Positions 16,780 to 28,069 of a DNA stretch of 51,438 bases are shown one piece after another (positions within the stretch are counted from its first letter, which is position 1; each line of letters opens with the position of its first letter). This DNA comes from Eggerthellaceae bacterium (GTDB lineage Bacteria; Spirochaetota; Spirochaetia; Sphaerochaetales; Sphaerochaetaceae). The stretch covers positions 1 to 51,438 of the forward strand of contig CAVIUT010000002.1 in NCBI GenBank assembly GCA_963646155.1, in the 5' to 3' direction. The notes below the pieces were generated by a model. That model made no database searches. It saw only the letters and a program-made list of their open reading frames with translations, and was not told the DNA's origin. The position numbers were made by a program, and so were the translations under genes.

Positions 16780-18822
16780 TTACCCTTCTTCTCTCTCCCG
16801 TCTCATTACTGTCATGCAGCCGCGGACAAGAACGCTGTACTTTTCGCCGTTCTGGCTGACTGAGTAGTCGTCCTTTCCCCTGCATCCTGTACACGGCTCC
16901 TTCAATGCGTCATGCCTGAAACATGTACGGGAAATAAAGTGCGGCATTTCGTAATGTGTAACAGTCGGTTCAAACGGCCACGCTATATCTCCCCGTTCTC
17001 TTTCAATCCAGAGGTATCCGGCCTTTATGGAGGGGCACTCCTCTAGAAGAAGTGATAGGGCGAATCTGTTCGAAAGATATAGAAAGACATCGACAAAGTA
17101 ATCGTACTCAGGGTGTAAAACCGCAAAACGAACCTGGCTTATATTGTTTAACCCGATTGTGGGTCTTTCACATCCTTTTACGGCATCGAGCATATCGCGC
17201 CAGAGCTTTTCTTCATTGAATGTGACGGGAGGGAATGTAAAGTAAGTTCTCTCTCCTGTTCTTTTTCCCTCAAGCGACCATGGCAAATCCCCGTCGAGTT
17301 CTTTCCTCTCGGGGAGGATGAAACTTACGTCCCTCTGAACAGGCTCATTAATAGTGGGCGTCTTAAATTCAATGTTTTGAACACTCGAGTAGAGCGCCCT
17401 TCTGAAACTCTTGAGTGCTGAGGGTGGAATGAACGGGAATGAGAGAGAGGAATAATTATGATAGTCGAGAGAAGAAAGCGTATATGGTGAGTCACCGCTC
17501 TCAAAGAGTGTCTTTTCTAGAAGTGGTCTGATGTCATTCTTCTTATTTGACTCCTCTATTTTAACAGCCACCACTGTTTTCTTGTTGAGGATAGTTCCTT
17601 CAAGCCTGTCATCATACAGATTGACGCTTATTTCAACACCTTTACGGTAGGGGGGGATATTTACAGACGGTGTCTTCTCACGCCTTGTAGAGTCTGATAT
17701 TTTGTATATTTCCTTTCCTAAAAGACTTTGTTTACTTTCCTTTAAAAGAATGTAGCCTCCCGGGGTTTTGGCCTTTACCACTGCCGATGACTTTACGGGA
17801 GTGGTAAGATTAGAATTGTCCTTTATAAAGTACTGTATGCCATCGTGACTCTCGAGAGTTTTGTCTGTCTCGAGAAAACAGCTCGAGCCTCTTTCTTCGA
17901 CGACCTTTCCGAGCCTGAGTCCCATATGACCCGGGTAATCGGCTGAGAGGAGGCTTTCTCTGTTCTTTCTGTATCTGAGATACCCGTCACCACTTTTACG
18001 CAGGAACGTCGAATAAAGTCTCTCTTCGTCTTCTTCCTTTATTTCCTTATCATCAAGAACAGCTCTGTAGTAGCGGGCACAGGCTGCAGTATATTCCGGG
18101 CTCTTGAGTCTTCCTTCGACCTTCACGCTGTCGATGGAAATATCTCTAAGTGCTTTCAGTTCCTCTTTTATGCAGAGGTCTTCCATGCTGAAGAAGTATC
18201 CCTTCTCTTTTGTTTTTTCGTTTATGAACCATGAGCGGCATATCTGCGCGCATTCCCCTCTATTGGCCGAGCGTCCGCATTTGTTGTAGGAAGCAAAGCA
18301 GAGACCGGAGAAACCGTAGCACAGGGCGCCGTGAATGAATACCTTGAGCTCGATATCGGGGCATGCTTTACGGATAGCTTTTATCTCATCGAAAGTAAGC
18401 TCTCTTGAGAGCACTACTCTTTCAAATCCGAGCCTCTGGAGCTCCTTTACCCCCTCGACTGTATGTACCGCCATCTGTGTTGAGCCGTGAAGTTTGAGGG
18501 TGGGGTAATATTTTCTTATTATCTCGACGAGTCCTAAGTCCTGAACGATTACACCATCATTTCCGTAGAAGGCGAGCGCATCAAGAAGAGGTAGCACGCG
18601 CTCTATATCGCTGTCAGATAGGAGCGTGTTGACCGTCACATAGATTTTCTTCCCGTTGTCGAGGGCATACCTTCTGATTTTCGATAAATCCTCGAGGGAG
18701 AAATTGACTGCGCCTTTTCTCGCCGAGAATTCCCTGAGGCCGAAATAAACGGCATCAGCTCCCTCCTTGAAAGCAACAAGTGCAGTTTCTAGATTTCCTG
18801 CAGGAAGTGCAAGTTCCGTCAT
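16780..18822 (-). CDS. Peptidase U32 family protein (long form with C-terminal extension)
   Basis: The N-terminus ELALPAGNLETALVAFKEGADAVYFG..FSAR and the cysteine-rich segment GALCYGFSGLCFASY..CGRSANRGECAQICR are typical of U32 proteins. Confidence 0.85.
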   Translation of the reverse strand: MTELALPAGNLETALVAFKEGADAVYFGLREFSARKGAVNFSLEDLSKIRRYALDNGKKIYVTVNTLLSDSDIERVLPLLDALAFYGNDGVIVQDLGLVEIIRKYYPTLKLHGSTQMAVHTVEGVKELQRLGFERVVLSRELTFDEIKAIRKACPDIELKVFIHGALCYGFSGLCFASYNKCGRSANRGECAQICRSWFINEKTKEKGYFFSMEDLCIKEELKALRDISIDSVKVEGRLKSPEYTAACARYYRAVLDDKEIKEEDEERLYSTFLRKSGDGYLRYRKNRESLLSADYPGHMGLRLGKVVEERGSSCFLETDKTLESHDGIQYFIKDNSNLTTPVKSSAVVKAKTPGGYILLKESKQSLLGKEIYKISDSTRREKTPSVNIPPYRKGVEISVNLYDDRLEGTILNKKTVVAVKIEESNKKNDIRPLLEKTLFESGDSPYTLSSLDYHNYSSLSFPFIPPSALKSFRRALYSSVQNIEFKTPTINEPVQRDVSFILPERKELDGDLPWSLEGKRTGERTYFTFPPVTFNEEKLWRDMLDAVKGCERPTIGLNNISQVRFAVLHPEYDYFVDVFLYLSNRFALSLLLEECPSIKAGYLWIERERGDIAWPFEPTVTHYEMPHFISRTCFRHDALKEPCTGCRGKDDYSVSQNGEKYSVLVRGCMTVMRREREEG

Positions 18823-21755
18823 TGTTTTCCTTCCTTTTTTTCAAGTACAACCACCGCTCTCTTTTCTCTTCCGTCTGCCTTTATGACAAAAGGATACTCA
18901 TTTCTGAGACGCACGAAGTGTTCTGTTTCTAGGACGACGGGAAGAGAATAAATTCTATCGTAGTCGATCACTCCTTTGTTCTGAAGAGGATTGACCGTGA
19001 GATATAAACACCCGAGGCTGGTAACATTCTGGAAGAAGTGGGTCCCCTCGCTGGGCTCTGCATAGAGGCCCTCAACTCCAGTCTCCACTATGACATGAGC
19101 TTTCGATATCTGAGACCATGACACAGGAATTCCCAGCCAGTTATCGCTGCTTCCGAGTCGTCCTGCTGCCACAAGAACGTATTCCGAGTCTGATGATGCG
19201 TTTATTTTCTCGAGTTCTCCCGCCATTCTTACCATTTCGCTGCGGGCGAAAGCATCCTTCTTGAAGATGACTATATCTGAAATGTTATCTATCTTTCCGT
19301 TTCCCATCACGCGTGGCGCAAAGATCAGGGCGCTCTCTTCTTCCTTTTCTGTAACAGTTACATCCTCGAAGCGGTCCGTTGATGATATTGGCCTGAGCTG
19401 CAGTATGGAGAAGTCAGGACGGTCCGGATGCTCTATGTTGACGGCAAACTCAATCTCCACAGGCTCTGACATCGTCTTCGAGCCCAGAACAAGAATGTCG
19501 TGGATAATCTCGCTAAGATGCAGCATGCCGTATTTTACTACTCCGTTGAATGTCAGACTCTTGAAGCCACTCTCTCTCGGATCTTCTGATGTATATCCGT
19601 CGCTGCGGATTGTGCTCATTATGCCTTTTATTGAATCGGGCCACTTAGACGAGAGCGATAAATCTAGAAGCGTCAGGTTGTCTATATCTGAATAAGGGTC
19701 GAAGGGAGTGTTTTTATCGAGTGCATAGAACTTTTTCTGACGCGAGGAGCTACCGTTTATAGAAGTAATAGGAATCTGGGGTTTTGCGGGACAGAAACGG
19801 AAAGCAGAGCCTTCGTCGACAACAGTCTTTCCCATTCCGTAGGCAAGCATTCCGATGCCGTCCTCTTGAGTTCTGTTTCCGGCCGGGTAGTAATCGAGAC
19901 TTCTCGCCACTCCCGAGATATTCGGGAACCAGTAATTCTCGTGCCAGGAGCCGGTAATCTGCTGGAGAACGACTGCCATCTTCTCCTCTTCAACTGCATG
20001 TCCCGTGCTCTTGAGGTACTCGCGTGCACGCATGAAGTAAGTTGATGCCCAGACTGTTTTGATTGCTTTGATTAAATCATCAAGCCTTTTTTCGTCATCT
20101 CCTGTATTTGGAATCATGCATGTCTCATATACACCTGCAAAGGGATAGAAATGGCTGTCCTCGAGAAGGGATGAAGACCTGACAGACATCGGAACATGTA
20201 TTACTTCCAATACCCTCTTCATATCGAGAAGGAAGTCTGACGGAACTTCAGCATTCAGGAAGAGCTCAAGAACTTCCCTGTCGCTCTCTATTTTGGTGAT
20301 ATCACTCGGCCAGAAGTTGTTGAGCGAAAGAAAACGGTCGAATATTTCGGTAGATATGGCAATTGTCTTCGGAATTGAAAGATACACGTCACTGTATTTC
20401 TCACTTATGCGTGACGCCTTCATCTCTGTCGCCAGGAATGCCAGGCCGCGTCCCTTTCCTCCAAGCGACCCTTTTCCGAGCCTCGAGAAGAGATAGGTCT
20501 CGTCGTAGTTCTCCCTCTTGAAGGTTGCAATACTTCCCCTTGTTCTATCCTTCCTGAATTTCTTTATCGTCTGGTAGATAAGTTCCCTTGTCTTCTCTAT
20601 GTCCGAGCCGTCACGCTTTGTCGTAATGGGTTTAAGTGTTGTGGCAAGGGAGAAAAGCGACTGTCCCCTCAGCCAGCGCGAGAAATCATTGCGTTTTACA
20701 TGGTAGCTGAAGACGGAGAGGGGGACCTTCATCATCGTCTCCTGGAGCTCCTTCATGCTGCATGCACGGGCTATTGTTTCGCCGTTATCAGGATTGATGA
20801 ATCTGAATGGCCCGAAGTTATATTTGTCTCTAAAGTAGTCGCCGAGCTCAAGGTACCTGTCGGGGGATAGTTTCCATATGAAATCTGCTCCCGTTCTCTT
20901 TGCCGTCTCCCAGCCCTGGGGGTCGGTGGACTGAATGAGAACAGGAAGTTCGGGATTGTCCTTTTTGATTTCCCTTGTCAGGTACTCGCCGCTGTTATCC
21001 TTTCCGTACGGAGACGGAAACGAGAGATCGGTAATGACACCGAGTATGTTCTCTCTGTATTTCTGATAGAGATTCATCGCTTCATCCCAGGTGCGGGCAA
21101 GTACGATTTTGGGACGACCCCGCATTCTGAGTTTCATTCCCCAGTCATTGAGGGCCTCAAGGATTGACGCCCTGTTCTGCTTTATGAGGAGTGTATATAT
21201 CTCAGGAAGGTATGTTGAGATGAATCTGACGGAGTCCTCGACAAAGAGGATAACTTCTACATCTGCTTCATTGGTGTCGTGGTCGATGTTTATCGCGTCC
21301 TCAATGAGCTTAATCATAGCCAGAAACAGCGATGGGTCGCCCATCCAATAGAATAGTGCGTCGATATAAGGACAGTTTTCGCCTTTTAAGACCTTTGCTT
21401 TCCTGTGGTCGGGGGATGGTGAGAGGACAACAAAAGGAAGTGACGGGTCATATTTCTTGACTTCCTCTGCCAGTACCTCAACTCTTCCCGAGCCCAGATC
21501 AAGCATCGATATAACAAGGTCAAAGCGCTCGCTCTTAAGCCTCTCGAGGGCTTCTTCTTCCGTATTTGTATGGGTTATCTTCGGAGGGTTACTCAGCCCC
21601 AGCGACGTATACTCCTTATAAAGTTCCTCTTCGACCCTTCCATCCTCTTCGAGCATGAATCTGTCGTAGTCGGAGCAGATGAGAAGTACACTGTAGATGT
21701 GCTTCAGCATCAAAGAAGAGAAGGGTATCCATGTTTCATCAAGCTGGTAGTACAT
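18819..21755 (-). CDS. Receiver-domain / PEP-pyruvate-binding (PPDK N-terminal-like) multidomain protein
   Basis: Two CheY-like modules (FDLVISMLDLG; ILGVITDLSFP) are followed by an ATP-grasp-like PPDK_N region (GKGSLGGKGRGLAFL). Its stop overlaps the U32 start (ATGA). Confidence 0.7.
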   Translation of the reverse strand: MYYQLDETWIPFSSLMLKHIYSVLLICSDYDRFMLEEDGRVEEELYKEYTSLGLSNPPKITHTNTEEEALERLKSERFDLVISMLDLGSGRVEVLAEEVKKYDPSLPFVVLSPSPDHRKAKVLKGENCPYIDALFYWMGDPSLFLAMIKLIEDAINIDHDTNEADVEVILFVEDSVRFISTYLPEIYTLLIKQNRASILEALNDWGMKLRMRGRPKIVLARTWDEAMNLYQKYRENILGVITDLSFPSPYGKDNSGEYLTREIKKDNPELPVLIQSTDPQGWETAKRTGADFIWKLSPDRYLELGDYFRDKYNFGPFRFINPDNGETIARACSMKELQETMMKVPLSVFSYHVKRNDFSRWLRGQSLFSLATTLKPITTKRDGSDIEKTRELIYQTIKKFRKDRTRGSIATFKRENYDETYLFSRLGKGSLGGKGRGLAFLATEMKASRISEKYSDVYLSIPKTIAISTEIFDRFLSLNNFWPSDITKIESDREVLELFLNAEVPSDFLLDMKRVLEVIHVPMSVRSSSLLEDSHFYPFAGVYETCMIPNTGDDEKRLDDLIKAIKTVWASTYFMRAREYLKSTGHAVEEEKMAVVLQQITGSWHENYWFPNISGVARSLDYYPAGNRTQEDGIGMLAYGMGKTVVDEGSAFRFCPAKPQIPITSINGSSSRQKKFYALDKNTPFDPYSDIDNLTLLDLSLSSKWPDSIKGIMSTIRSDGYTSEDPRESGFKSLTFNGVVKYGMLHLSEIIHDILVLGSKTMSEPVEIEFAVNIEHPDRPDFSILQLRPISSTDRFEDVTVTEKEEESALIFAPRVMGNGKIDNISDIVIFKKDAFARSEMVRMAGELEKINASSDSEYVLVAAGRLGSSDNWLGIPVSWSQISKAHVIVETGVEGLYAEPSEGTHFFQNVTSLGCLYLTVNPLQNKGVIDYDRIYSLPVVLETEHFVRLRNEYPFVIKADGREKRAVVVLEKKEGKQ

Positions 21756-21934
21756 TACTTTTTAAATTTATTAACAAGAAATAAGACAATGCTCGAGAGC
21801 ATGAAAAAAAGTGTAATCAAGCCGAGAACAAATAGTGTGTTTTCGCTGACTCCCACTACAGATATAAGGACAATCAGGGTAAGAAGCAGTGCTCCCAATG
21901 CCCAGAGAGATATTTTATAAAGGATATTCAACAT
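21755..21934 (-). CDS. Small two-TM membrane protein
   Basis: MLNILYKISLWALGALLLTLIVLISVV...LGLITLFFMLSSIVLFLV. An AGAGG SD lies 5 nt before ATG 21934. Its stop overlaps the start of the downstream gene (TAATG). Confidence 0.5.
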   Translation of the reverse strand: MLNILYKISLWALGALLLTLIVLISVVGVSENTLFVLGLITLFFMLSSIVLFLVNKFKK

Positions 21935-22039
21935 GGCAACCTCTTTTTGCATTATAAATAATGAGGGGAAGGTTATCTACAGAATAGTAAGATGGAGTTT
22001 TAAATTCTGGGTGAACTTCAACTCGATAAAACCTGGATC

Positions 22040-22078
22040 GATATTTCGGCAGTAAAGTGCAATTACTGCCGAAATATC
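22040..22078. repeat. Perfect 15-bp-stem hairpin in a long non-coding stretch
   Basis: gatatttcggcagta-aagtgcaat-tactgccgaaatatc. On the minus strand a GTTTTAT stretch follows after 8 nt, so it may terminate the islet operon. Confidence 0.6.
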
Positions 22079-22534
22079 TGATAACTCCACTGATGGACTA
22101 TAGCATCAAATATGTTTGTTACACAGCTACCGAACCTCACCATTGGCTGTTATTGCGGAAACACATTAAACTGAACCCACTTTGTGGGAACCTTTTCTTC
22201 CTCTGACAACTCTGTGGATAAGGGGGTTCTATTGCCTTTTTCTGTATACAGTGGCATATTCAGTCTGTAGAACATGCCTTCAATGCCTCTGTTCCGCCTC
22301 TTGGGGATAGCAAAAACTGCCACTAATTTCCATATGTGTGGTTCCCACGGGGGTTCATTTCAATCCATTTATCTCAAATTCAGCTGTGAGTTCGTTCCTG
22401 GACGTAAAAGTTATCGTGATTGCTGTCGTTATGGGCTGAATTTATCGACCAAATCTTAAGATTAGACTTTGGGACTTACTGTAGACCTCTGAGGTACTCA
22501 AACCACTGTTATTTATCTTCTTTCTTAGGCTTAC

Positions 22535-22864
22535 TCAATAATCATCAAGCTCGATAGCACGAATATCTTTGAGGATGTTATATTCCTTAGCTTTCTCTGG
22601 ATATTTTTCAGACACCTTCCTAAAAGGGATTACCACCTTTTCATTGTCGAGTTTTATAGCGAGGTCGATTATAATCTCCGAGAGATAGACGAACTCCATG
22701 GCTGTAGCTTCCTCTGTTAGGAATTTGCAGAATCCCTTCCAGTCATCAAGTGCTATTTTAAGAAATGCCTCCCAACACCTCTCCTCACCGTAATCACTTC
22801 CATCATTTTCATTCCAGAGTCGTTCTCGCTCTTTCAATGTACTTAAAAGTTCTTCTCTATTCAT
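22535..22864 (-). CDS. Putative immunity/antitoxin protein for the upstream EndoU-like toxin
   Basis: An acidic 109-aa ORF. Its ATG lies 2 nt after the toxin stop and its SD (AGGAG) lies within the toxin's last codons. I recognise no family. Confidence 0.5.
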   Translation of the reverse strand: MNREELLSTLKERERLWNENDGSDYGEERCWEAFLKIALDDWKGFCKFLTEEATAMEFVYLSEIIIDLAIKLDNEKVVIPFRKVSEKYPEKAKEYNILKDIRAIELDDY

Positions 22865-22866
22865 AT

Positions 22867-23349
22867 CTAACTCCTCTTCTTTTCATTTGATTGGTCCCTG
22901 TCCGGAAATACCGTGGCTGTTTTACCTTTAGTTTTTATCACTCCAACCCAAACGCCCTTGTATTTCCCCCACATCTTGTTCCCGTCCGGCTGATTTACAT
23001 TACGTTTCAATTTTGAGACATATTCTGCAGCCTTGACAATAACCTTCTCATCCCAGCTGGCTGGGAACCATGACTGCGCTGTACCACTTTTTTTGAGATT
23101 ATTTTTATGATTTGGCACATTCCCAACTCTTACTCCATTATCATAAGTATGGACGATGTTAAACTCGATGTTCTGCTTTGTCATATATTCTATAGCCTCC
23201 TGACCATGCCCGCCACTATTGAGTCTATATGGTTTTCCTGTCTTATGTTCTTTTATATATTCTCCTTCGAGAGAATGAATGATTGCCTCATGATGAATAA
23301 TGTTGCTCCCTTTTGAGGTATAATATTTGCCACTAACACCTGTTCCCAT
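22867..23349 (-). CDS. Stand-alone EndoU-like RNase toxin domain protein
   Basis: NSGGHGQE...VGNVPNHKNNLKKSGTAQSWFPASWDEKVIVKAAEYV...KGVWVGVIKTKGKTATVFPD matches the bacterial EndoU toxin pattern as I recall it (GGH, K-x-(S/T)-x-FP-x-x-W-S, GV-x-I/V...FP). It is a basic protein. ATG 23349 is preceded by GAGGAGG at 6-nt spacing. Confidence 0.6.
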   Translation of the reverse strand: MGTGVSGKYYTSKGSNIIHHEAIIHSLEGEYIKEHKTGKPYRLNSGGHGQEAIEYMTKQNIEFNIVHTYDNGVRVGNVPNHKNNLKKSGTAQSWFPASWDEKVIVKAAEYVSKLKRNVNQPDGNKMWGKYKGVWVGVIKTKGKTATVFPDRDQSNEKKRS

Positions 23350-24022
23350 TTCTTGCCTCCTCATGCTTTCTCTTTATCCAGTTCGGGAACTGGATAAAGT
23401 TGGTTCGAACCTCAAAGCCAGAGAAGACTTCTGTCGGCATTGCTCCGTAAACAATAACACTCGCCGGCTCAATAATATCAAGCATAGCTTTTAAGCCTTT
23501 ACGAAGATGAAGTTTCTCTATTCTTGTCTTTGAACATCCGTATGTTCCTATTGCAACTGTAGAATGCTTCTCGATTCCCTGAAAGGCAAAAGGAGTATCT
23601 CCGGCGATAATCTCTTCATACGACCTTTCGTCTCCCCACCTAATGTTTGGTATCGTATATACTCCGTTCTCTTGAAGGAAATGTCCAAATTGTCGATTTC
23701 TGTATGTGTTGAAAATCTGAAGAGCAAGTGGCATGTCATAATAGAGCGAGCAGTCGGGAGATATGGCTCCTCTGAATCGCCTTGCCTTTGCTAATGCTTT
23801 CCAGGGCTCGATGAAGATGTCCTTAAAACGCACATCATGCTCATAGAACATCAGAATGTCTTTTTCGTGTCCCGGAGTATTGCACTGACTATAAGGTATG
23901 AGTCCGGTGGGAATTATTGTCTCTTTGTTGCGCCTGATTAAGGGCATTTCGAATACCCCGTCAAAGACTGCATTCTCAACGAGTTCTGCATTGAAGCCGT
24001 CATTAATTATTTTTTTCTTCAT
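23333..24022 (-). CDS. DUF4417 domain protein
   Basis: ISPDCSLYYDMPLALQIFNTYRNRQFGHFLQENGVYTIPNIRWGDERSY...VAIGTYGC matches the conserved DUF4417 core as I recall it (SPDFSLY-DMPLAMQI-NTYR-R, IPNVRWGDE). Its 3' end overlaps the toxin start by 17 nt. Confidence 0.7.
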   Translation of the reverse strand: MKKKIINDGFNAELVENAVFDGVFEMPLIRRNKETIIPTGLIPYSQCNTPGHEKDILMFYEHDVRFKDIFIEPWKALAKARRFRGAISPDCSLYYDMPLALQIFNTYRNRQFGHFLQENGVYTIPNIRWGDERSYEEIIAGDTPFAFQGIEKHSTVAIGTYGCSKTRIEKLHLRKGLKAMLDIIEPASVIVYGAMPTEVFSGFEVRTNFIQFPNWIKRKHEEARNGNRC

Positions 24023-24119
24023 TGAATCATCTCCTTTTAACTGGAGATAACCTTACTCTGAGATGTTTCGTATTTGAATGCACTCTTGGAGGTGAATTTC
24101 TACACCCGTACGGGTGATT

Positions 24120-25040
24120 TCACTCGAGACGACATATTTTCTTCAGATTGTTAATCTCTTGAGAGTTTGATGTGGCATGATGGTAAGAACCCTTGAGCCT
24201 GCTTGTCCTGAATGCCTTCTCGATATCTGACCATCTTGTGTAAGACAAGACATCTCCGAAAAACTGTGCTAGAGACTGCTTGCTCTTCTTCCAACATAAG
24301 AAGTTGTCCTGAATCTCTACATAACCCGCTTTGATTAGAGAAGGAAGCTTCTCTTCAAGACATGAGCATTCTCTCATGAGGTAAAGAACTGCAGAATTCA
24401 GTTTTGTCTTATCATATCTTCCCTCCACATCCAATATTACTGGCTTATTGCAGGTCCTTGTCTCGAGAAGATACCTGTTAGAGAAAGCATCAATTCCTAG
24501 ACGCGTGAAATACAGGAGATATGAGTCCCAGCCTTCCCTGTAGCTGTAGATATACCCCATAAGCTGAAGCTCCTTTAGTCCATATCTGAATGTGTCAAAA
24601 TGAAAATAATCGAGATATTGGAAGCCCTTTATAAGACAGAAGTTGGAATCAACAGTAGGTGGTGATTTTATCGTATCATAGACAAATAGAGCAGCCTTAG
24701 AGAGCCCATGTCTTCGAGCTGTATTTATGATGTCAAAATCGAGAAGTTCTTCATTTCTTCTGTTTGTTTTCTTATTTTGATCAACCATGACACTATGGGA
24801 GGAAAAAGCTTCCATTGGATTGTTGGAAGGAAGGTTCGGAATATGGGGGCTCATTTTCTCTGGTAAGGCATCCTGTGATACTTGGGGCTTATTATCATGT
24901 GTAGACGTTTCCATTTTTTCTTGCCCCCTCTTTTTTGCATTCCACGCTTCTCTTTCTTGCGATAAGAGGAAATCTTCGGTTTCCTTTACAAGAGCATCAG
25001 AAATAATTTTTTCACCTTCATTCAGTAAACAAATAGACAT
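24120..25040 (-). CDS. Hypothetical protein (possible winged-helix region), islet-associated
   Basis: ATG 25040 has an AAGGAG SD 7 nt upstream. The N-terminal third is low-complexity. The central FRYGLKELQLMGYIYSY segment looks wHTH-like. No confident family. Confidence 0.5.
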   Translation of the reverse strand: MSICLLNEGEKIISDALVKETEDFLLSQEREAWNAKKRGQEKMETSTHDNKPQVSQDALPEKMSPHIPNLPSNNPMEAFSSHSVMVDQNKKTNRRNEELLDFDIINTARRHGLSKAALFVYDTIKSPPTVDSNFCLIKGFQYLDYFHFDTFRYGLKELQLMGYIYSYREGWDSYLLYFTRLGIDAFSNRYLLETRTCNKPVILDVEGRYDKTKLNSAVLYLMRECSCLEEKLPSLIKAGYVEIQDNFLCWKKSKQSLAQFFGDVLSYTRWSDIEKAFRTSRLKGSYHHATSNSQEINNLKKICRLE

Positions 25041-25434
25041 ATGTTGTCTCCTTATACCAGTCATTATAGTCGCAATTAATTTCAATACCCCCAATTCAAA
25101 TGGATTTTAGAAAAGTGCATTGAAGGGAGGAGTCAAGAGTAAGGCTTTGAGGAATTATCACGGAAATACTTCCATTCTGTTTTACATAAGGATGGGGAAA
25201 ATATAGGAGGCCAATTTATAGCTTTTTAATTATCAGCGCTATAACAAAATGAATTACATAGTGTGTAAAAAAGTGTCCGTGGTTTTAGGTGTTTTTTAAA
25301 ATCCTTGTGATATCATCAAAAAATAAGAAAAAAATTAAAGATATGATTAAAATTGAAGAGAAAAATTAAAGTAGAAATAATAATTGACGGATTATAAAAG
25401 TGGATTTACGCTTATTGCATAAAAGGAGATTACA

Positions 25435-27016: not shown

Positions 27017-27979
27017 CTACTTCCTATAAACTTTGAGTATGCTCTCGAGTAGTGTTACATACTTCCCGCGTATCGTTTCGGGTGAGATAACCTCGACACT
27101 TGTTCCACACTGCACCAAGCGCAGAAAAAGTTCAATCGAGTTCTCGATTCTCATCGAGCATGTGTAATCGCCGCTTTCGTTTTCAACAACAGATACTTTT
27201 TCATGGTTCAGCGTTGAGAAGGAGTTGAGCGCGCTCTTCTCCTTCACCCTTAGAACAAGGGGAATCATATCGATGGCGTCATAGCTCTCCGAGTCCCTTT
27301 TAGTGAAGGGCTTGAGGTTATCAGGAATAGTGTATGTTTCATTGAGCATCTGGACGGAGACTATCGTTGTTATGTTGAGTGTTATTATGTCCTTAGTGTG
27401 TCTCAGTCTTCCCGTGACGGTCATAGGTTTTCGGCCGTTATTGTCTTCGGTGAAGCCTATGAAGTACGGTGCCATCTCGATTTCCTCGCTTCCCGGGGTC
27501 GTGGAAGATATCTTTGCCAGGTGCCCCGAAACCCAGCAGTCGATGAGAACTTCGATTACCGTGTTGTATTGACTCTTCTCGACCATCGTCGAATCGAATT
27601 TCTTTTCAATGTTTTCTGCAACCGTCAGGATGTTGTCAGATACATTCGGCGCGTAGGAACGCATGTTCATCGCAATCTTTCTTAATCCCGATGCAAGGTG
27701 CGGGTTCTGCACAATCGTGCTGTTGGCAAGTGCCTCAACGGACATGTTGAAGGCAAGTGTTTCATATACCGAGAGCTCTAAGGGAGATGAAGCCTCCGCT
27801 TCCTTTATCTTTATGAGATTATTGTCTTCATATATTTCAATATGTTCAGAGAGGTCCTCTACATACCTGCTTATCGTCGAACGGTGTACGCCGAGGCGTC
27901 GTGCAATCTCGGCTCTTCTTAATCCTTCCGGATGGGAACGCAGCAATAGTTCAAGCTGCGCAACTCTTTCTCCTTTCAT
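27017..27979 (-). CDS. HTH-WYL-WCX type transcriptional regulator
   Basis: An N-terminal HTH (GLRRAEIARRLGVHRSTISRYVEDL), a central WYL-like beta region (APYFIGF...RLRHTKDIITLNITTIVSVQMLNETYTIP) and a C-terminal WCX-like segment (LFLRLVQCGTSVEVISPETIRGKY). ATG 27979 has a GGAGGG SD. Confidence 0.65.
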   Translation of the reverse strand: MKGERVAQLELLLRSHPEGLRRAEIARRLGVHRSTISRYVEDLSEHIEIYEDNNLIKIKEAEASSPLELSVYETLAFNMSVEALANSTIVQNPHLASGLRKIAMNMRSYAPNVSDNILTVAENIEKKFDSTMVEKSQYNTVIEVLIDCWVSGHLAKISSTTPGSEEIEMAPYFIGFTEDNNGRKPMTVTGRLRHTKDIITLNITTIVSVQMLNETYTIPDNLKPFTKRDSESYDAIDMIPLVLRVKEKSALNSFSTLNHEKVSVVENESGDYTCSMRIENSIELFLRLVQCGTSVEVISPETIRGKYVTLLESILKVYRK

Positions 27980-27997
27980 TTTTCCCTCCTTCCCGAT

Positions 27998-28069
27998 TGT
28001 AGCAACAAAAATGCTACAGTTGAAGAAGAAAAACAACAAAAGGCAACAAAAAAAGAAACAATTTGTTGC
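27998..28069. promoter_or_regulatory. Two inverted repeats sharing a GCAACAAAA core in the WYL-regulator/slyX divergent region
   Basis: TGTAGCA-7-TGCTACA lies at 27998-28018 and GCAACAAA-11-TTTGTTGC at 28043-28069. They are candidate operator sites. Confidence 0.35.

Follow-up and report, generated by a model that had tools for sequence, protein, structure and literature searches.

A DUF4417 gene, a gene for a stand-alone toxin of the EndoU RNase family, and a gene for its predicted immunity protein make up a conserved module that has spread horizontally across phyla, and one copy of this module resides in a strain-variable, low-GC island within the 51,438-nucleotide stretch of DNA analyzed here (the window). 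As many as 315 species, most of them bacteria of the gut or rumen, encode relatives of this EndoU, and the three-gene arrangement was seen again in dozens of independent genomes, a recurrence that is far beyond chance. A survey of related loci for conserved linkage, as proposed in the original prediction, revealed DUF4417 adjacent to the EndoU-immunity pair in 76 of 82 loci, in two gene orders, and the immunity family in 82 of 83 loci. The same prediction held that no described system combines DUF4417, EndoU, and immunity, and none was found in PADLOC, NCBIfam, or the literature searched; the four proteins of the operon had no match among PADLOC-DB 2.0 models at E ≤ 1 and none in NCBIfam. We tentatively favor, at somewhat less than an even chance, the reading that the operon core (DUF4417, EndoU, and immunity) is a conserved mobile conflict module acting inside the cell, either as an inducible toxin-immunity defense or as an addiction system. 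Delivery of the toxin by phages has to be taken seriously as a competing reading to an intracellular module.

The island that holds the cassette extends over positions 21986..25295 (3.3 kb), from a PPDK-like operon (65-aa ORF) to the gdhA promoter, and its flanking genes are housekeeping genes (e.g., DnaE, RecG, and GdhA). All four co-directional ORFs that had been reported are present on the minus strand, and the surrounding stretch is indeed AT-richer, with a GC content of 0.402 versus 0.474 in the remainder of the window. Nucleotide homology with three cassette-less relatives (L213, L214, and L216) and with L005 ends at position 21985 and restarts at 25293-25296, and the cassette-less relatives carry a Nif11-like gene or an AAA-ATPase/PDDEXK_9 gene in the same slot instead. 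Identity to L005 is 85–88% for the cassette proteins and 67% for a 306-aa protein encoded upstream of them, versus 95–99% for the flanking proteins. The alternative cargo of the slot, the lower identity to L005, and the low GC content together show that the island is accessory and fast-evolving and that the cassette site is a strain-variable hotspot. A repeat search found no flanking repeats around the island, and phage structural genes were found neither in the window nor near most survey loci.

The toxin is encoded on the minus strand at 22867..23349 as a protein of 160 aa with a pI of 9.7. That it belongs to EndoU, as originally proposed, was borne out by a profile search in which EndoU_bacteria (PF14436) was matched over 127 of 129 profile positions (49.9 bits against a cut-off of 25.3; E = 5.4e-13), and 120 of 120 EndoU homologs among the matches listed carry the same domain. 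A longer reading of this ORF, from 23364, is possible; the start at 23349 is backed by homologs, with MG at that position in 26 of 26 aligned proteins and an MG start in 82 of 85 survey copies. Residues H25, H48, T140, T146, and K86 are invariant among 26 homologs, and T146 is located on the last predicted strand (residues 143–149) of an AF2 model with a pLDDT of 93. The EndoU-like active site comprises two conserved His and a Ser/Thr on the terminal beta-strand (bioRxiv 10.64898/2026.08.28.747851), an arrangement that is matched by the two-His plus Thr pattern of H25, H48, and T146; these are therefore the probable catalytic positions, as judged from pattern and not from superposition. A comparison of the predicted toxin fold, which in the EndoU group is a duplicated BECR core, had also been proposed: coronavirus Nsp15/NendoU structures accounted for 26 of the top 31 PDB neighbors of the model, but each was a weak match (E of 0.04–0.9, TM 0.35–0.43). 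The EndoU sequence profile had no match among solved EndoU structures. Collectively, these sequence features indicate that the 160-aa protein is an EndoU-family RNase.

The absence of a delivery region and a signal peptide also held, in that no domain besides EndoU, and no large N-terminal trafficking or secretion domain, was detected in the toxin. None of the four proteins contains a hydrophobic stretch that could be a signal peptide or membrane helix, nor does any of them have a MuF domain in Pfam. In terms of polymorphic toxins (sensu Zhang et al., 2012), the EndoU domain occurs on different N-termini and is followed directly by an immunity gene, whereas the large N-terminal domain is missing.

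The immunity gene (22535..22864, minus strand) encodes a protein of 109 aa with a pI of 4.6 that had been assigned an immunity role as the acidic gene downstream of the toxin. Homology strengthens this assignment, since a profile built from survey homologs of the 109-aa protein matched the ORF that follows the EndoU tip of the Moraxella bovis pMBO-1 toxin with 64.6 bits (E = 4.9e-19), whereas the best of 1000 shuffles reached 17.1 bits. The family is also encoded downstream of MuF-EndoU fusions. The 109-aa protein has no Pfam match and no match to HTH, RHH, or AbrB domains, and its gene comes after that of the toxin. By homology and position, the 109-aa protein belongs to the immunity family found alongside this EndoU clade in polymorphic toxins of the classical kind.

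The stop codon of the DUF4417 gene (23335-23333) lies beyond the EndoU start (23349), such that the two genes overlap by 17 nt, and the EndoU Shine-Dalgarno sequence (GAGGAGG, 23362-23356, 6 nt ahead of the ATG) is within the DUF4417 gene. The immunity ATG (22864) is 2 nt past the EndoU stop and is preceded by GAGGAG at 22876-22871, and 97 nt separate DUF4417 from the 306-aa gene. These junctions, read from the sequence, are as first described, and the start/stop overlaps are kept in related loci. By these junctions, the DUF4417, EndoU, and immunity genes are translationally coupled.

The conserved partner of the toxin (23333..24022, minus strand) is an enzyme-like protein of 229 aa in which the DUF4417 core was recovered as PF14386 (160.2 bits against a cut-off of 28.9; E = 5e-47), with further matches to PHROG 8680 and 940. 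Its AF2 model (pLDDT 88, pTM 0.86) has no significant structural neighbor in the PDB, and residues D90, S92, Y94, D96, Q102, N105, W129, D131, and E132 are conserved even among phage members. The claimed association with phages and ParB is evident: at least 507 sequenced phages encode the domain, mycobacteriophages and streptococcal prophages among them, and ParB_N is fused to it in 15 of 74 viral loci. Phage ParB-CTPase-DUF4417 fusions are the subject of a preprint (bioRxiv 10.1101/2025.10.10.680097) whose DUF4417 passages describe the same domain as enriched in phages and prophages and are silent on any tagged effector encoded after it. Unlike those fusions, the DUF4417 of the window is a protein of its own and has a toxin-immunity pair as its partner.

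In phages, DUF4417 adjoins terminase genes within the DNA-packaging module and is then followed by a gene for a tagged toxin-domain protein. The adjoining gene encodes a MGGRGxSSG-like N-terminal tag in 64% of cases versus a background of 1.2%, and the tagged neighbors carry unrelated toxin domains, including ADP-ribosyltransferase, glutamine deamidase, and HExxH protease. Phage genes that carry the tag exhibit systematic start-codon mis-annotation. The stand-alone EndoU has a related Gly-rich tag (MGTGxSG) at its N-terminus, which in the window is MGTGVSGKYYTSKGS (codons at about 23349-23305). This segment is 7–16 aa in length ahead of the EndoU domain, begins MG[TS]xxxGRY in 82 of 85 stand-alone copies, and is missing from MuF-fused versions, whose trafficking domain it replaces. 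The window trio looks like a cell-resident branch of a wider, likewise undescribed, phage system that pairs DUF4417 with many different toxins.

A tagged toxin-domain protein as the constant phage neighbor provides a first functional handle on DUF4417. It is possible, though speculative, that DUF4417 represents a new polymorphic effector class, in which an enzyme-like protein of new fold recognizes or processes a Gly-rich tag (MGGRGxSSG / MGRGSS / MGTxKSG) common to EndoU RNases, ADP-ribosyltransferases, glutamine deamidase, HExxH proteases, and many others, and so loads or activates effectors or couples them, for instance, to the DNA or capsids of phages as packaging proceeds. The window cassette would then be a cell-captured branch equipped with immunity and used for defense or competition. 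The tag and DUF4417 may in this way constitute a new route for handling polymorphic toxins, in place of fusing them to the MuF head protein, an idea that bears on how phages arm particles or hosts.

An enzymatic role of a different kind is hinted at by the sole fold neighbors of DUF4417 outside its own family, which are TIM-barrel enzymes and phage ‘queuine tRNA-ribosyltransferase’ models (E = 2e-3, TM 0.43; weak). If DUF4417 were a TIM-barrel, TGT-like enzyme that modifies or exchanges RNA or DNA bases, it might mark self or prepare a substrate, with EndoU cutting unmarked or marked RNA in a manner akin to restriction-modification. The ParB_N fusions point to nucleic-acid work, and mycobacteriophage Zaria encodes a DUF4417 and partner pair inside a tRNA gene cluster. 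However, profile comparison of DUF4417 with E. coli Tgt yielded a probability of 0.2%, and no PDB sequence matched DUF4417. A dedicated immunity protein would moreover be redundant in such a system, and a tag common to non-nuclease toxins (ADP-ribosyltransferase and deamidase) would be left unexplained. We consider RNA restriction of this type very unlikely.

The phage context fits toxin delivery at least as well as it fits an intracellular role. DUF4417 and the tag could be a trafficking or loading device that replaces MuF, such that EndoU would be loaded either into particles of a resident or infecting phage or onto DNA that is being transferred, and would reach other cells by injection. Immunity would shield the producer and its kin, and the cassette would be an inter-strain or inter-phage weapon or a means of superinfection exclusion and not of suicide. 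MuF polymorphic toxins are borne by temperate phages (Jamet et al., 2017, PMC5576092), and the EndoU and immunity families identified here are also found together with MuF or minor-capsid proteins, EndoU as their C-terminal tip and the immunity family directly downstream, with the toxins belonging to the same EndoU clade. The range of toxins next to DUF4417 (EndoU, ADP-ribosyltransferase, metallopeptidase, and deamidase) matches the MuF range (PMC5576092), and both MuF and DUF4417 are tied to the DNA-packaging and head module of phages. Moreover, DUF4417 was absent from the 10 kb around each of 36 MuF-type EndoU loci of viruses; MuF and DUF4417 are mutually exclusive partners in these loci, and the tag stands in for the trafficking domain. 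One cassette is located at a prophage edge, adjoining terminase genes.

In Fibrobacter, EndoU and immunity genes form tandem arrays in which the immunity genes have recombined, as is typical for polymorphic toxins that are delivered and not for abortive-infection systems. Classical polymorphic toxins (CDI / MafB / hemagglutinin-repeat; CdiA-CT STECO31) share other features with the cassette: the window EndoU shares 46% identity with the tip of the pMBO-1 toxin, a homologous immunity ORF (E = 5e-19) occupies the same position, and tandem arrays occur among cassette relatives. Besides that 778-aa toxin, which belongs to a hemagglutinin-repeat locus, this EndoU clade is found on an 825-aa protein and as a stand-alone protein. 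In contrast to classical polymorphic toxins, the cassette has an obligatory DUF4417 and is devoid of an N-terminal secretion or trafficking region, repeats, and nearby secretion-system genes.

Unlike MuF toxins, the window toxin is a separate, tagged 160-aa protein without MuF, beside DUF4417 and outside a prophage. Several observations weigh against delivery, which we regard as possible but doubtful. Phage structural genes are missing from the window and from the surroundings of most survey loci. The stand-alone EndoU family had no match in 50,697 phage genomes and was represented in IMG/VR by four near-identical contigs only. A packaging role for DUF4417 or the tag is hypothetical, and the AF2 model places the first tag residues, with high confidence, as strands packed on the EndoU domain, which would be expected of a structural element no less than of a free signal.

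The intracellular module that we favor draws on the genomic neighborhood of related cassettes, which includes BREX, RM, Lamassu, and SoFic defense genes. In Bifidobacterium scaligerum, the cassette is embedded between brxC and pglX, beside an ABC-3C system, and the 150 neighboring proteins sampled across loci include CapP-like (19), CapH (5), SoFic (4), and LmuA (4) proteins in addition to RM subunits and Mrr; two were integrases. M78 peptidase clusters were identified in 22 related loci and Xre HTH proteins in 32, and a CapH/CapP-like repressor-peptidase pair precedes the operon in about a quarter of related loci. CapH/CapP are regulators of immune operons, including those of CBASS, DISARM, and others (bioRxiv 10.1101/2022.04.27.489752), and as in those operons an Xre-type HTH protein and an M78/ImmA-like peptidase are encoded directly upstream in the related loci, which suggests DNA-damage-inducible expression. 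Unlike in those operons, the pair is mostly co-directional and not divergent, it is absent from the window, and the genes that it would regulate differ from any operon in that study. Taken together, the defense-island context and these regulators make an intracellular abortive-infection or addiction function plausible, as was originally preferred.

In such a module, the acidic immunity protein would bind and neutralize the basic RNase in the producing cell until an imbalance, brought about by operon induction or by a loss of immunity when phages infect or DNA is damaged, freed EndoU. The toxin would then cleave cellular and/or phage RNA (tRNA, rRNA, or mRNA), leaving the 2′,3′-cyclic phosphate ends that the metal-independent cleavage of the EndoU family produces, and translation would stop, resulting in abortive infection or post-segregational killing. 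DUF4417 would act on or with the toxin via the Gly-rich tag, through recognition, modification, activation, or loading. If confirmed, this would add a widespread three-gene system to the known conflict and defense systems and an RNase effector family that is new to catalogued defense systems. The preference for an intracellular role is challenged, however, because phage DUF4417 pairs with tagged toxins in the packaging module and because the EndoU-immunity pair otherwise occurs on virion-delivered MuF toxins, as well as on delivered hemagglutinin-type toxins. Further points against it are that no known defense model matches, that the window lacks a CapH/CapP-like regulator, and that the function of DUF4417 is not accounted for. 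CapH/CapP-like pairs do not separate the two readings, because they are of the same kind as prophage ImmR/ImmA switches.

The cassette also resembles type II toxin-antitoxin and abortive-infection RNases (BECR-fold, e.g., RelE; defense toxins in PMC11980606), in that a small basic BECR RNase and a small acidic neutralizer share one operon and many cassette relatives have a defense-island context and inducible regulators. In the simplest version of this likeness, EndoU and immunity would be a type II-like pair that selfishly stabilizes the island, with DUF4417 co-transferred and engaged in an unrelated job such as nucleic-acid modification. A toxin-immunity pair alone would suffice for this, the island is small and self-contained without flanking repeats, its horizontal spread is patchy, and in one related locus (L210) DUF4417 is accompanied by a different small toxin-like and acidic pair. 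Yet linkage to DUF4417 is near-obligate and survives changes in gene order, the start/stop overlaps are conserved, and a tag that is specific to DUF4417-adjacent proteins and spans unrelated toxin domains is hard to explain if DUF4417 is functionally unrelated. The cassette further differs from type II systems in its toxin-first order, its neutralizer without a detectable DNA-binding domain, its three or four genes, and its polymorphic-toxin ancestry. We regard plain addiction as improbable.

The first gene of the operon (24120..25040, minus strand) encodes the 306-aa accessory protein and is preceded by AAGGAG at 25053-25048, 7 nt before the ATG, although its longest ORF extends to 25094. The protein had no match in Pfam, PADLOC, NCBIfam, or the PDB, and its family is tiny, with 12 representatives among 1.84 billion proteins. 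Distant relatives are encoded directly upstream of DUF4417 cassettes in L005, L024, L207, L209, and L210, a placement that holds wherever the sequence of the locus reaches far enough to tell and that speaks for the gene as part of the module. The wHTH-like segment attributed to this protein did not hold up, as neither an HTH nor any other domain was detected, whether in the protein itself or in 12 relatives. As a family seen only upstream of such cassettes, it may be an alternative regulator or sensor that replaces the CapH/CapP-like pair.

At its other end, the island includes a 546-nt segment (21986..22531) that appears non-coding and is missing from the otherwise syntenic L005, where the blocks that align to window positions 21700-21986 and 22532-25087 are separated by ~44 nt. 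Neither Rfam families nor tRNAs were identified in this segment. It contains a perfect 16-bp inverted repeat (22040..22078; 100% complementary, 7-nt loop) ~460 nt 3′ of the immunity gene, which is possibly a transcript-end or regulatory hairpin.

The four co-directional minus-strand ORFs of the original prediction are all present, at 22535-25040. From upstream to downstream they encode a 306-aa protein (24120-25040; no Pfam match), a 229-aa DUF4417 protein (23333-24022; PF14386, E=5e-47), a 160-aa EndoU protein (22867-23349; EndoU_bacteria PF14436, E=5.4e-13), and a 109-aa protein (22535-22864; no Pfam match). In Pfam searches with the window proteins, the PF14386 and PF14436 matches were both well over the curated cut-offs. 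The predicted coupling of the DUF4417 and EndoU genes was borne out by a 17-nt overlap and by a GAGGAGG motif 6 nt ahead of the EndoU ATG, which is the second ATG (23349), where homologues all begin with MG. The 109-aa ORF occupies the position expected of an immunity gene, as had been claimed, beginning 2 nt past the EndoU stop codon and being preceded by GAGGAG. The EndoU protein is basic (pI 9.7) whereas the 109-aa protein is acidic (pI 4.6), and neither a signal-peptide-like nor a membrane segment is present in any of the four, in agreement with the proposed absence of a signal peptide on the toxin. Promoter and terminator scans of the locus returned nothing above shuffled expectation.

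Within the EndoU family, H25 and H48 are invariant, as is T146 on the last strand; two histidines and a last-strand threonine comprise the arrangement described for EndoU-like RNases (bioRxiv 10.64898/2026.08.28.747851). The solved structures nearest to an AF2 model of the protein (pLDDT 93) were almost all Nsp15/NendoU, each match being weak, and a search of the family profile against solved structures returned only spurious acyl-CoA-binding proteins. Among annotated proteins, the domain is most closely related to toxin tips. On plasmid pMBO-1 of Moraxella bovis, a hemagglutinin-repeat toxin locus encodes a 778-aa protein that terminates in the EndoU domain, and the next ORF, of 106 aa, was matched by the immunity profile (E=4.9e-19; best of 1000 shuffles, 17 bits). 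In IMG/VR, the domain forms mostly the C-terminus of MuF/minor-capsid proteins of 520-580 aa, followed by the same immunity family; such MuF-EndoU proteins are MuF polymorphic toxins of temperate phages (PMC5576092). Because homologous ORFs follow both the pMBO-1 and the MuF EndoU tips, the 109-aa gene was assigned to the immunity family associated with this EndoU clade, as the predicted downstream immunity gene would require. The toxin-immunity pair is of polymorphic-toxin ancestry. The cassette toxin is a member of the EndoU_bacteria family and the pair is of polymorphic-toxin type, but it differs from polymorphic toxins proper in lacking their trafficking domain, from MuF toxins in lacking MuF and in not residing in a prophage, and from type II toxin-antitoxin systems in gene order and in lacking a DNA-binding antitoxin.

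More than 650 database relatives of the 160-aa EndoU protein were detected, nearly all of them stand-alone and ~160 aa in length; with one genome scanned per species, up to 315 species encode a relative. Of these, 79 loci were fetched, mostly from gut and rumen bacteria; they include Treponema/Spirochaetaceae, many Clostridia, and Fibrobacter, together with isolates of Bifidobacterium, Roseburia, and Clostridium. These 79 loci from the species scan and three from another search comprise an 82-locus set, in which DUF4417 was immediately upstream of EndoU in 64 loci (where the two genes directly abut, every copy except one has a gap of -17 to +5 nt) and closely followed the EndoU-immunity unit in 12; the other six consisted of one 825-aa fusion protein and, for the most part, truncated contigs. 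The immunity family, the third gene, was identified in 82 of 83 loci by a profile search; a word-index search gave only three close relatives, and a profile built from the survey loci was needed. Given this linkage, it is unlikely that the locus is simply an addiction pair accompanied by an unrelated DUF4417 gene. The downstream order is clearest in Fibrobacter, in which DUF4417 comes after one to three EndoU-immunity pairs in tandem; the immunity genes there are identical in their C-terminal halves and differ in their N-terminal halves. One Fibrobacter locus (L038:6914-11638) comprises an Xre HTH gene, an M78 peptidase gene, three tandem EndoU-immunity pairs, the first EndoU being frameshifted, and DUF4417. 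The pattern of immunity halves at this locus is a sign of recombination or diversification.

Occurrence of the cassette in Archaea was rejected as unproven. A locus labelled Methanomethylophilaceae (L063) is ~90% identical over ~19.5 kb to contigs with bacterial labels (Sodaliphilus, Senegalimassilia, and Fibrobacter), and loci L061 and L070 fall in the same ~90%-identical group. With all three this close to one another and to Fibrobacter contigs (~90% identity), no archaeal occurrence is claimed. A locus labelled Ruminococcus intestinalis (L005) is syntenic with the Sphaerochaetaceae-like window at 87-94% nucleotide identity. The taxonomic labels of metagenome-assembled genomes (MAGs) among the survey loci are unreliable and some are wrong.

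The window spans an entire NCBI contig of 51.4 kb, whose GdhA groups with the GdhA of a Sphaerochaetaceae MAG, and the rest of it encodes housekeeping functions (DnaE, RecG, GdhA, a U32 peptidase, and a PPDK-like protein). Close relatives have the same flanks with other cargo in the slot, namely a Nif11-like gene or an AAA-ATPase/PDDEXK_9 gene, and nucleotide homology with them ends at 21985 and restarts at ~25296. The cassette is therefore a 3.3-kb accessory island in a variable hotspot, and its GC content is low (0.402 versus 0.474). Locus L005 carries the same four genes at the same site, with 95-99% identity to the window in flanking proteins versus 85-88% in the three core proteins and 67% in the 306-aa protein; the island changes more rapidly than the sequence around it. 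A search for direct or inverted repeats bounding the island found none, and no tRNA, Rfam family, integrase, or transposase was found in the slot. Collectively, these results show that DUF4417, EndoU, and the immunity gene form a translationally coupled, conserved, and mobile unit in a variable hotspot. A 546-nt segment within the island (21986-22531) that is missing from L005 has no notable ORF and no Rfam match; within it is a hairpin (22040-22078), a perfect inverted repeat of 16 bp around a 7-nt loop.

The 306-aa protein had no match in Pfam, PADLOC, PHROGs, NCBIfam, or a PDB sequence search, and the wHTH-like segment previously ascribed to it was not supported, Pfam being negative for the window protein and 12 relatives. 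This family is tiny (12 representatives in 1.84 billion proteins), and in each of the six loci with enough downstream sequence the member gene immediately precedes a DUF4417 cassette; two further contigs with relatives were too short for a downstream cassette to be judged. In one locus (L210:1215-3799), a 306-aa relative and DUF4417 are followed by a 122-aa protein, which has neither an EndoU domain nor the N-terminal MG tag discussed below, and by an acidic 121-aa ORF, neither of which has a Pfam match. The L210 arrangement suggests that other toxin-immunity pairs also occur in cellular cassettes.

The AF2 model of the DUF4417 protein (pLDDT 88, pTM 0.86) has an alpha/beta fold in which strands and helices alternate. 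Comparison of the model with the PDB (Foldseek) revealed no significant neighbour (best E=0.02, the weak matches all being TIM barrels), and the DUF4417 profile had no PDB sequence match. Among viral models (BFVD), the matches were phage DUF4417 proteins and then, weakly, a 'queuine tRNA-ribosyltransferase' (E=2e-3, TM 0.43). Kinship with TGT/DpdA was rejected and left as a weak hint only, with hhalign against E. coli Tgt giving a probability of 0.2%; E. coli Tgt, used as a tblastn query for phage DpdA, recovered canonical Tgt only. Beside these results, an RNA-modification logic for the cassette is quite improbable. The polar residues common to cellular and phage DUF4417 proteins (D90, S92, Y94, D96, Q102, N105, W129, D131, and E132) argue for an enzyme.

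By itself, DUF4417 occurs in 507 of 50,697 phage genomes, mainly those of Mycobacterium, Streptococcus, and Gordonia phages, and in phages it usually adjoins terminase genes. The protein is ~300 to 390 aa long in 15 of 74 viral loci, with DUF4417 C-terminal in all but one of these, and a ParB_N domain was N-terminal to DUF4417 in the one long viral protein tested. A preprint lists the ParB-DUF4417 fusion as phage-enriched with function unassigned (bioRxiv 10.1101/2025.10.10.680097), and this was the only literature on DUF4417 that we found. In one viral protein (L142:2186-3106), DUF4417 is joined to a Sigma70 region 2 segment at the C-terminus (E=4.9e-6), which sets its architecture apart from the ParB_N fusion.

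For 79 further viral (IMG/VR) loci, retrieved with a DUF4417 alignment, the gene that immediately follows DUF4417 was set against the remaining genes. An MG start was present in 49 of 67 downstream genes (73%) versus 52 of 1013 other genes in the same loci (5%), and the strict motif ^MG[GRTSKA][RGKS][GS] in 43 of 67 (64%) versus 12 of 1013 (1.2%). Typical starts of this Gly-rich tag are MGGRGASSG, MGRGSSK, MGKGTSASGG, and MGTGFHGG, at times after a short leader (...LQFFGGRGAS). Dual coding was excluded as its cause: overlap with DUF4417 spans -46 to +154 nt, and Fibrobacter EndoU, which is upstream of DUF4417 with no overlap, still begins MGTSKPG. The downstream proteins form 22 families by their C-terminal parts, about half of which have the loose motif by automatic count, and several more begin MGRG, MGTG, or MGAG. 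Where recognisable, the C-terminal parts are toxin domains, including an ADP-ribosyltransferase exoenzyme (E=9e-32 and 1.7e-6), a papain-fold glutamine deamidase toxin (PF15644, E=1.2e-15), and HExxH proteases.

The same pattern was identified in annotated phages from other hosts (including loci L085, L205, L206, and L223-L225). Tagged proteins comprise Mycobacteriophage Keziacharles14 gp2 (MGQGSGGSG..., then a HELAH protease), Mycobacteriophage Zaria gp115 (MGRGRHSG), and those of a Dorea phage (MGGRGSASG) and Dulem virus 39 (MGGRSG); Lactococcus proPhi6 has an in-frame GGRGASSG ahead of the annotated start, and in Streptococcus phage Javan115 the annotated start is inside the conserved family. 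The starts of three such genes look mis-annotated: a conserved GGRG motif is upstream of the annotated start in Javan115_0029 (L085:4750-5028) and proPhi6 ORF29 (L223:3156-3713), and the annotated start of Keziacharles14 gp2 (L205:1017-1907) is three codons ahead of the conserved MG. In Zaria, DUF4417 and its tagged neighbour (genes 114-115, L206:2306-3344) are located amid a tRNA gene cluster.

Stand-alone EndoU proteins start with MG[TS]xxxGRY in 82 of 85 copies, whereas MuF-fused EndoU has an unrelated linker there, and DUF4417 was found within 10 kb of MuF-type EndoU in none of 36 loci. In our reading, polymorphic toxin domains can be partnered by DUF4417 plus the tag instead of being fused to MuF, and the window cassette is the EndoU-plus-immunity member living in cellular chromosomes. 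The association is strong, not absolute, because the small protein after DUF4417 in L210 has no tag. The coupling may represent a new mechanism for handling polymorphic toxins, a realistic possibility although less likely than not. DUF4417 and the tag would be a loading device if the toxin were delivered via phage particles, an explanation that is supported by the MuF parallel, by the position of DUF4417 in the phage packaging module, and by the tandem EndoU-immunity arrays. This is the main rival to an intracellular function and is possible rather than likely.

A census of the cellular cassettes covered 150 flanking proteins from 69 loci. PADLOC identified 19 as CapP and five as CapH; SoFic and LmuA (Lamassu) accounted for four each, phage integrase for two, and several were RM or Mrr components. 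Clustering of flanking genes identified Xre-type HTH genes in 32 loci and M78/ImmA-like peptidase genes in 22, directly upstream, the latter on the cassette strand. CapH and CapP are DNA-damage-responsive regulators of immune operons that are related to prophage ImmR/ImmA (bioRxiv 10.1101/2022.04.27.489752); a CapH/CapP-like pair is absent from the window. The cassette of Bifidobacterium scaligerum is between brxC and pglX of a BREX locus, beside an ABC-3C system, and that of a wolf-gut contig adjoins an Mrr/M78 protein. In four near-identical viral contigs, the cassette is at the prophage edge beside Fic, and the prophage has in addition a phage-type DUF4417 gene of its own. The IMG/VR prophage of this type (L087:436-12281) thus holds two DUF4417 genes: a phage-type copy, followed by a tagged ADP-ribosyltransferase gene, is placed between the large terminase and HNH/portal genes, whereas the cellular-type DUF4417-EndoU-immunity cassette is beside a Fic gene and points away from the gene for the small terminase.

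Tentatively, the single most likely reading is that the cassette acts inside the cell as an inducible defence or addiction module. This reading is favoured by the defence-island setting, by the CapH/CapP-like regulators, by the fact that the window has no delivery genes, and by the finding that isolated phages do not carry the family. In such an intracellular system, the immunity protein would neutralise the RNase in the producer cell, and RNase that is freed or overproduced would cleave RNA and stop translation; DUF4417 would act on or with the tagged toxin. The original prediction that no system with the DUF4417, EndoU, and immunity architecture has been described also held. No PADLOC or NCBIfam model matched any of the four proteins, which sets the cassette apart from catalogued defence systems, and no description of the system or of the tag was found in the literature searched. 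The module is real and broader than was visible from the sequence alone, with a function that we infer.

The left flank of the hotspot is fixed by a 978-aa protein (18819-21755, minus strand) that is kept in relatives and has a PPDK_N domain (PEP-utilising, ATP-binding) and a weak receiver-like N-terminal region under the Pfam cut-off. Among relatives of the window (L213-L220), both gdhA flanks vary between close relatives; cargo around gdhA includes Nif11-like, AAA-ATPase_like/PDDEXK_9, and N6 DNA methylase genes, with a Y1 transposase in one MAG (L221), and the region appears to be an integration hotspot. Beyond gdhA, 2 kb from the cassette, a minus-strand gene (27017-28039) with no obvious defence operon adjoining encodes a wHTH-WYL-WCX protein (PADLOC WYL and Cas3c N-terminal models, Pfam WCX), an immune-operon regulator of the CapW/BrxR type. 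With 97% identity to its L005 counterpart, it belongs to the flank that the two loci have in common. Two tandem 31-nt A/T-rich direct repeats that are 81% identical (25309-25370) are possibly a regulatory site of gdhA; they fall where the cassette and gdhA diverge, at the inner margin of the flank common to relatives.
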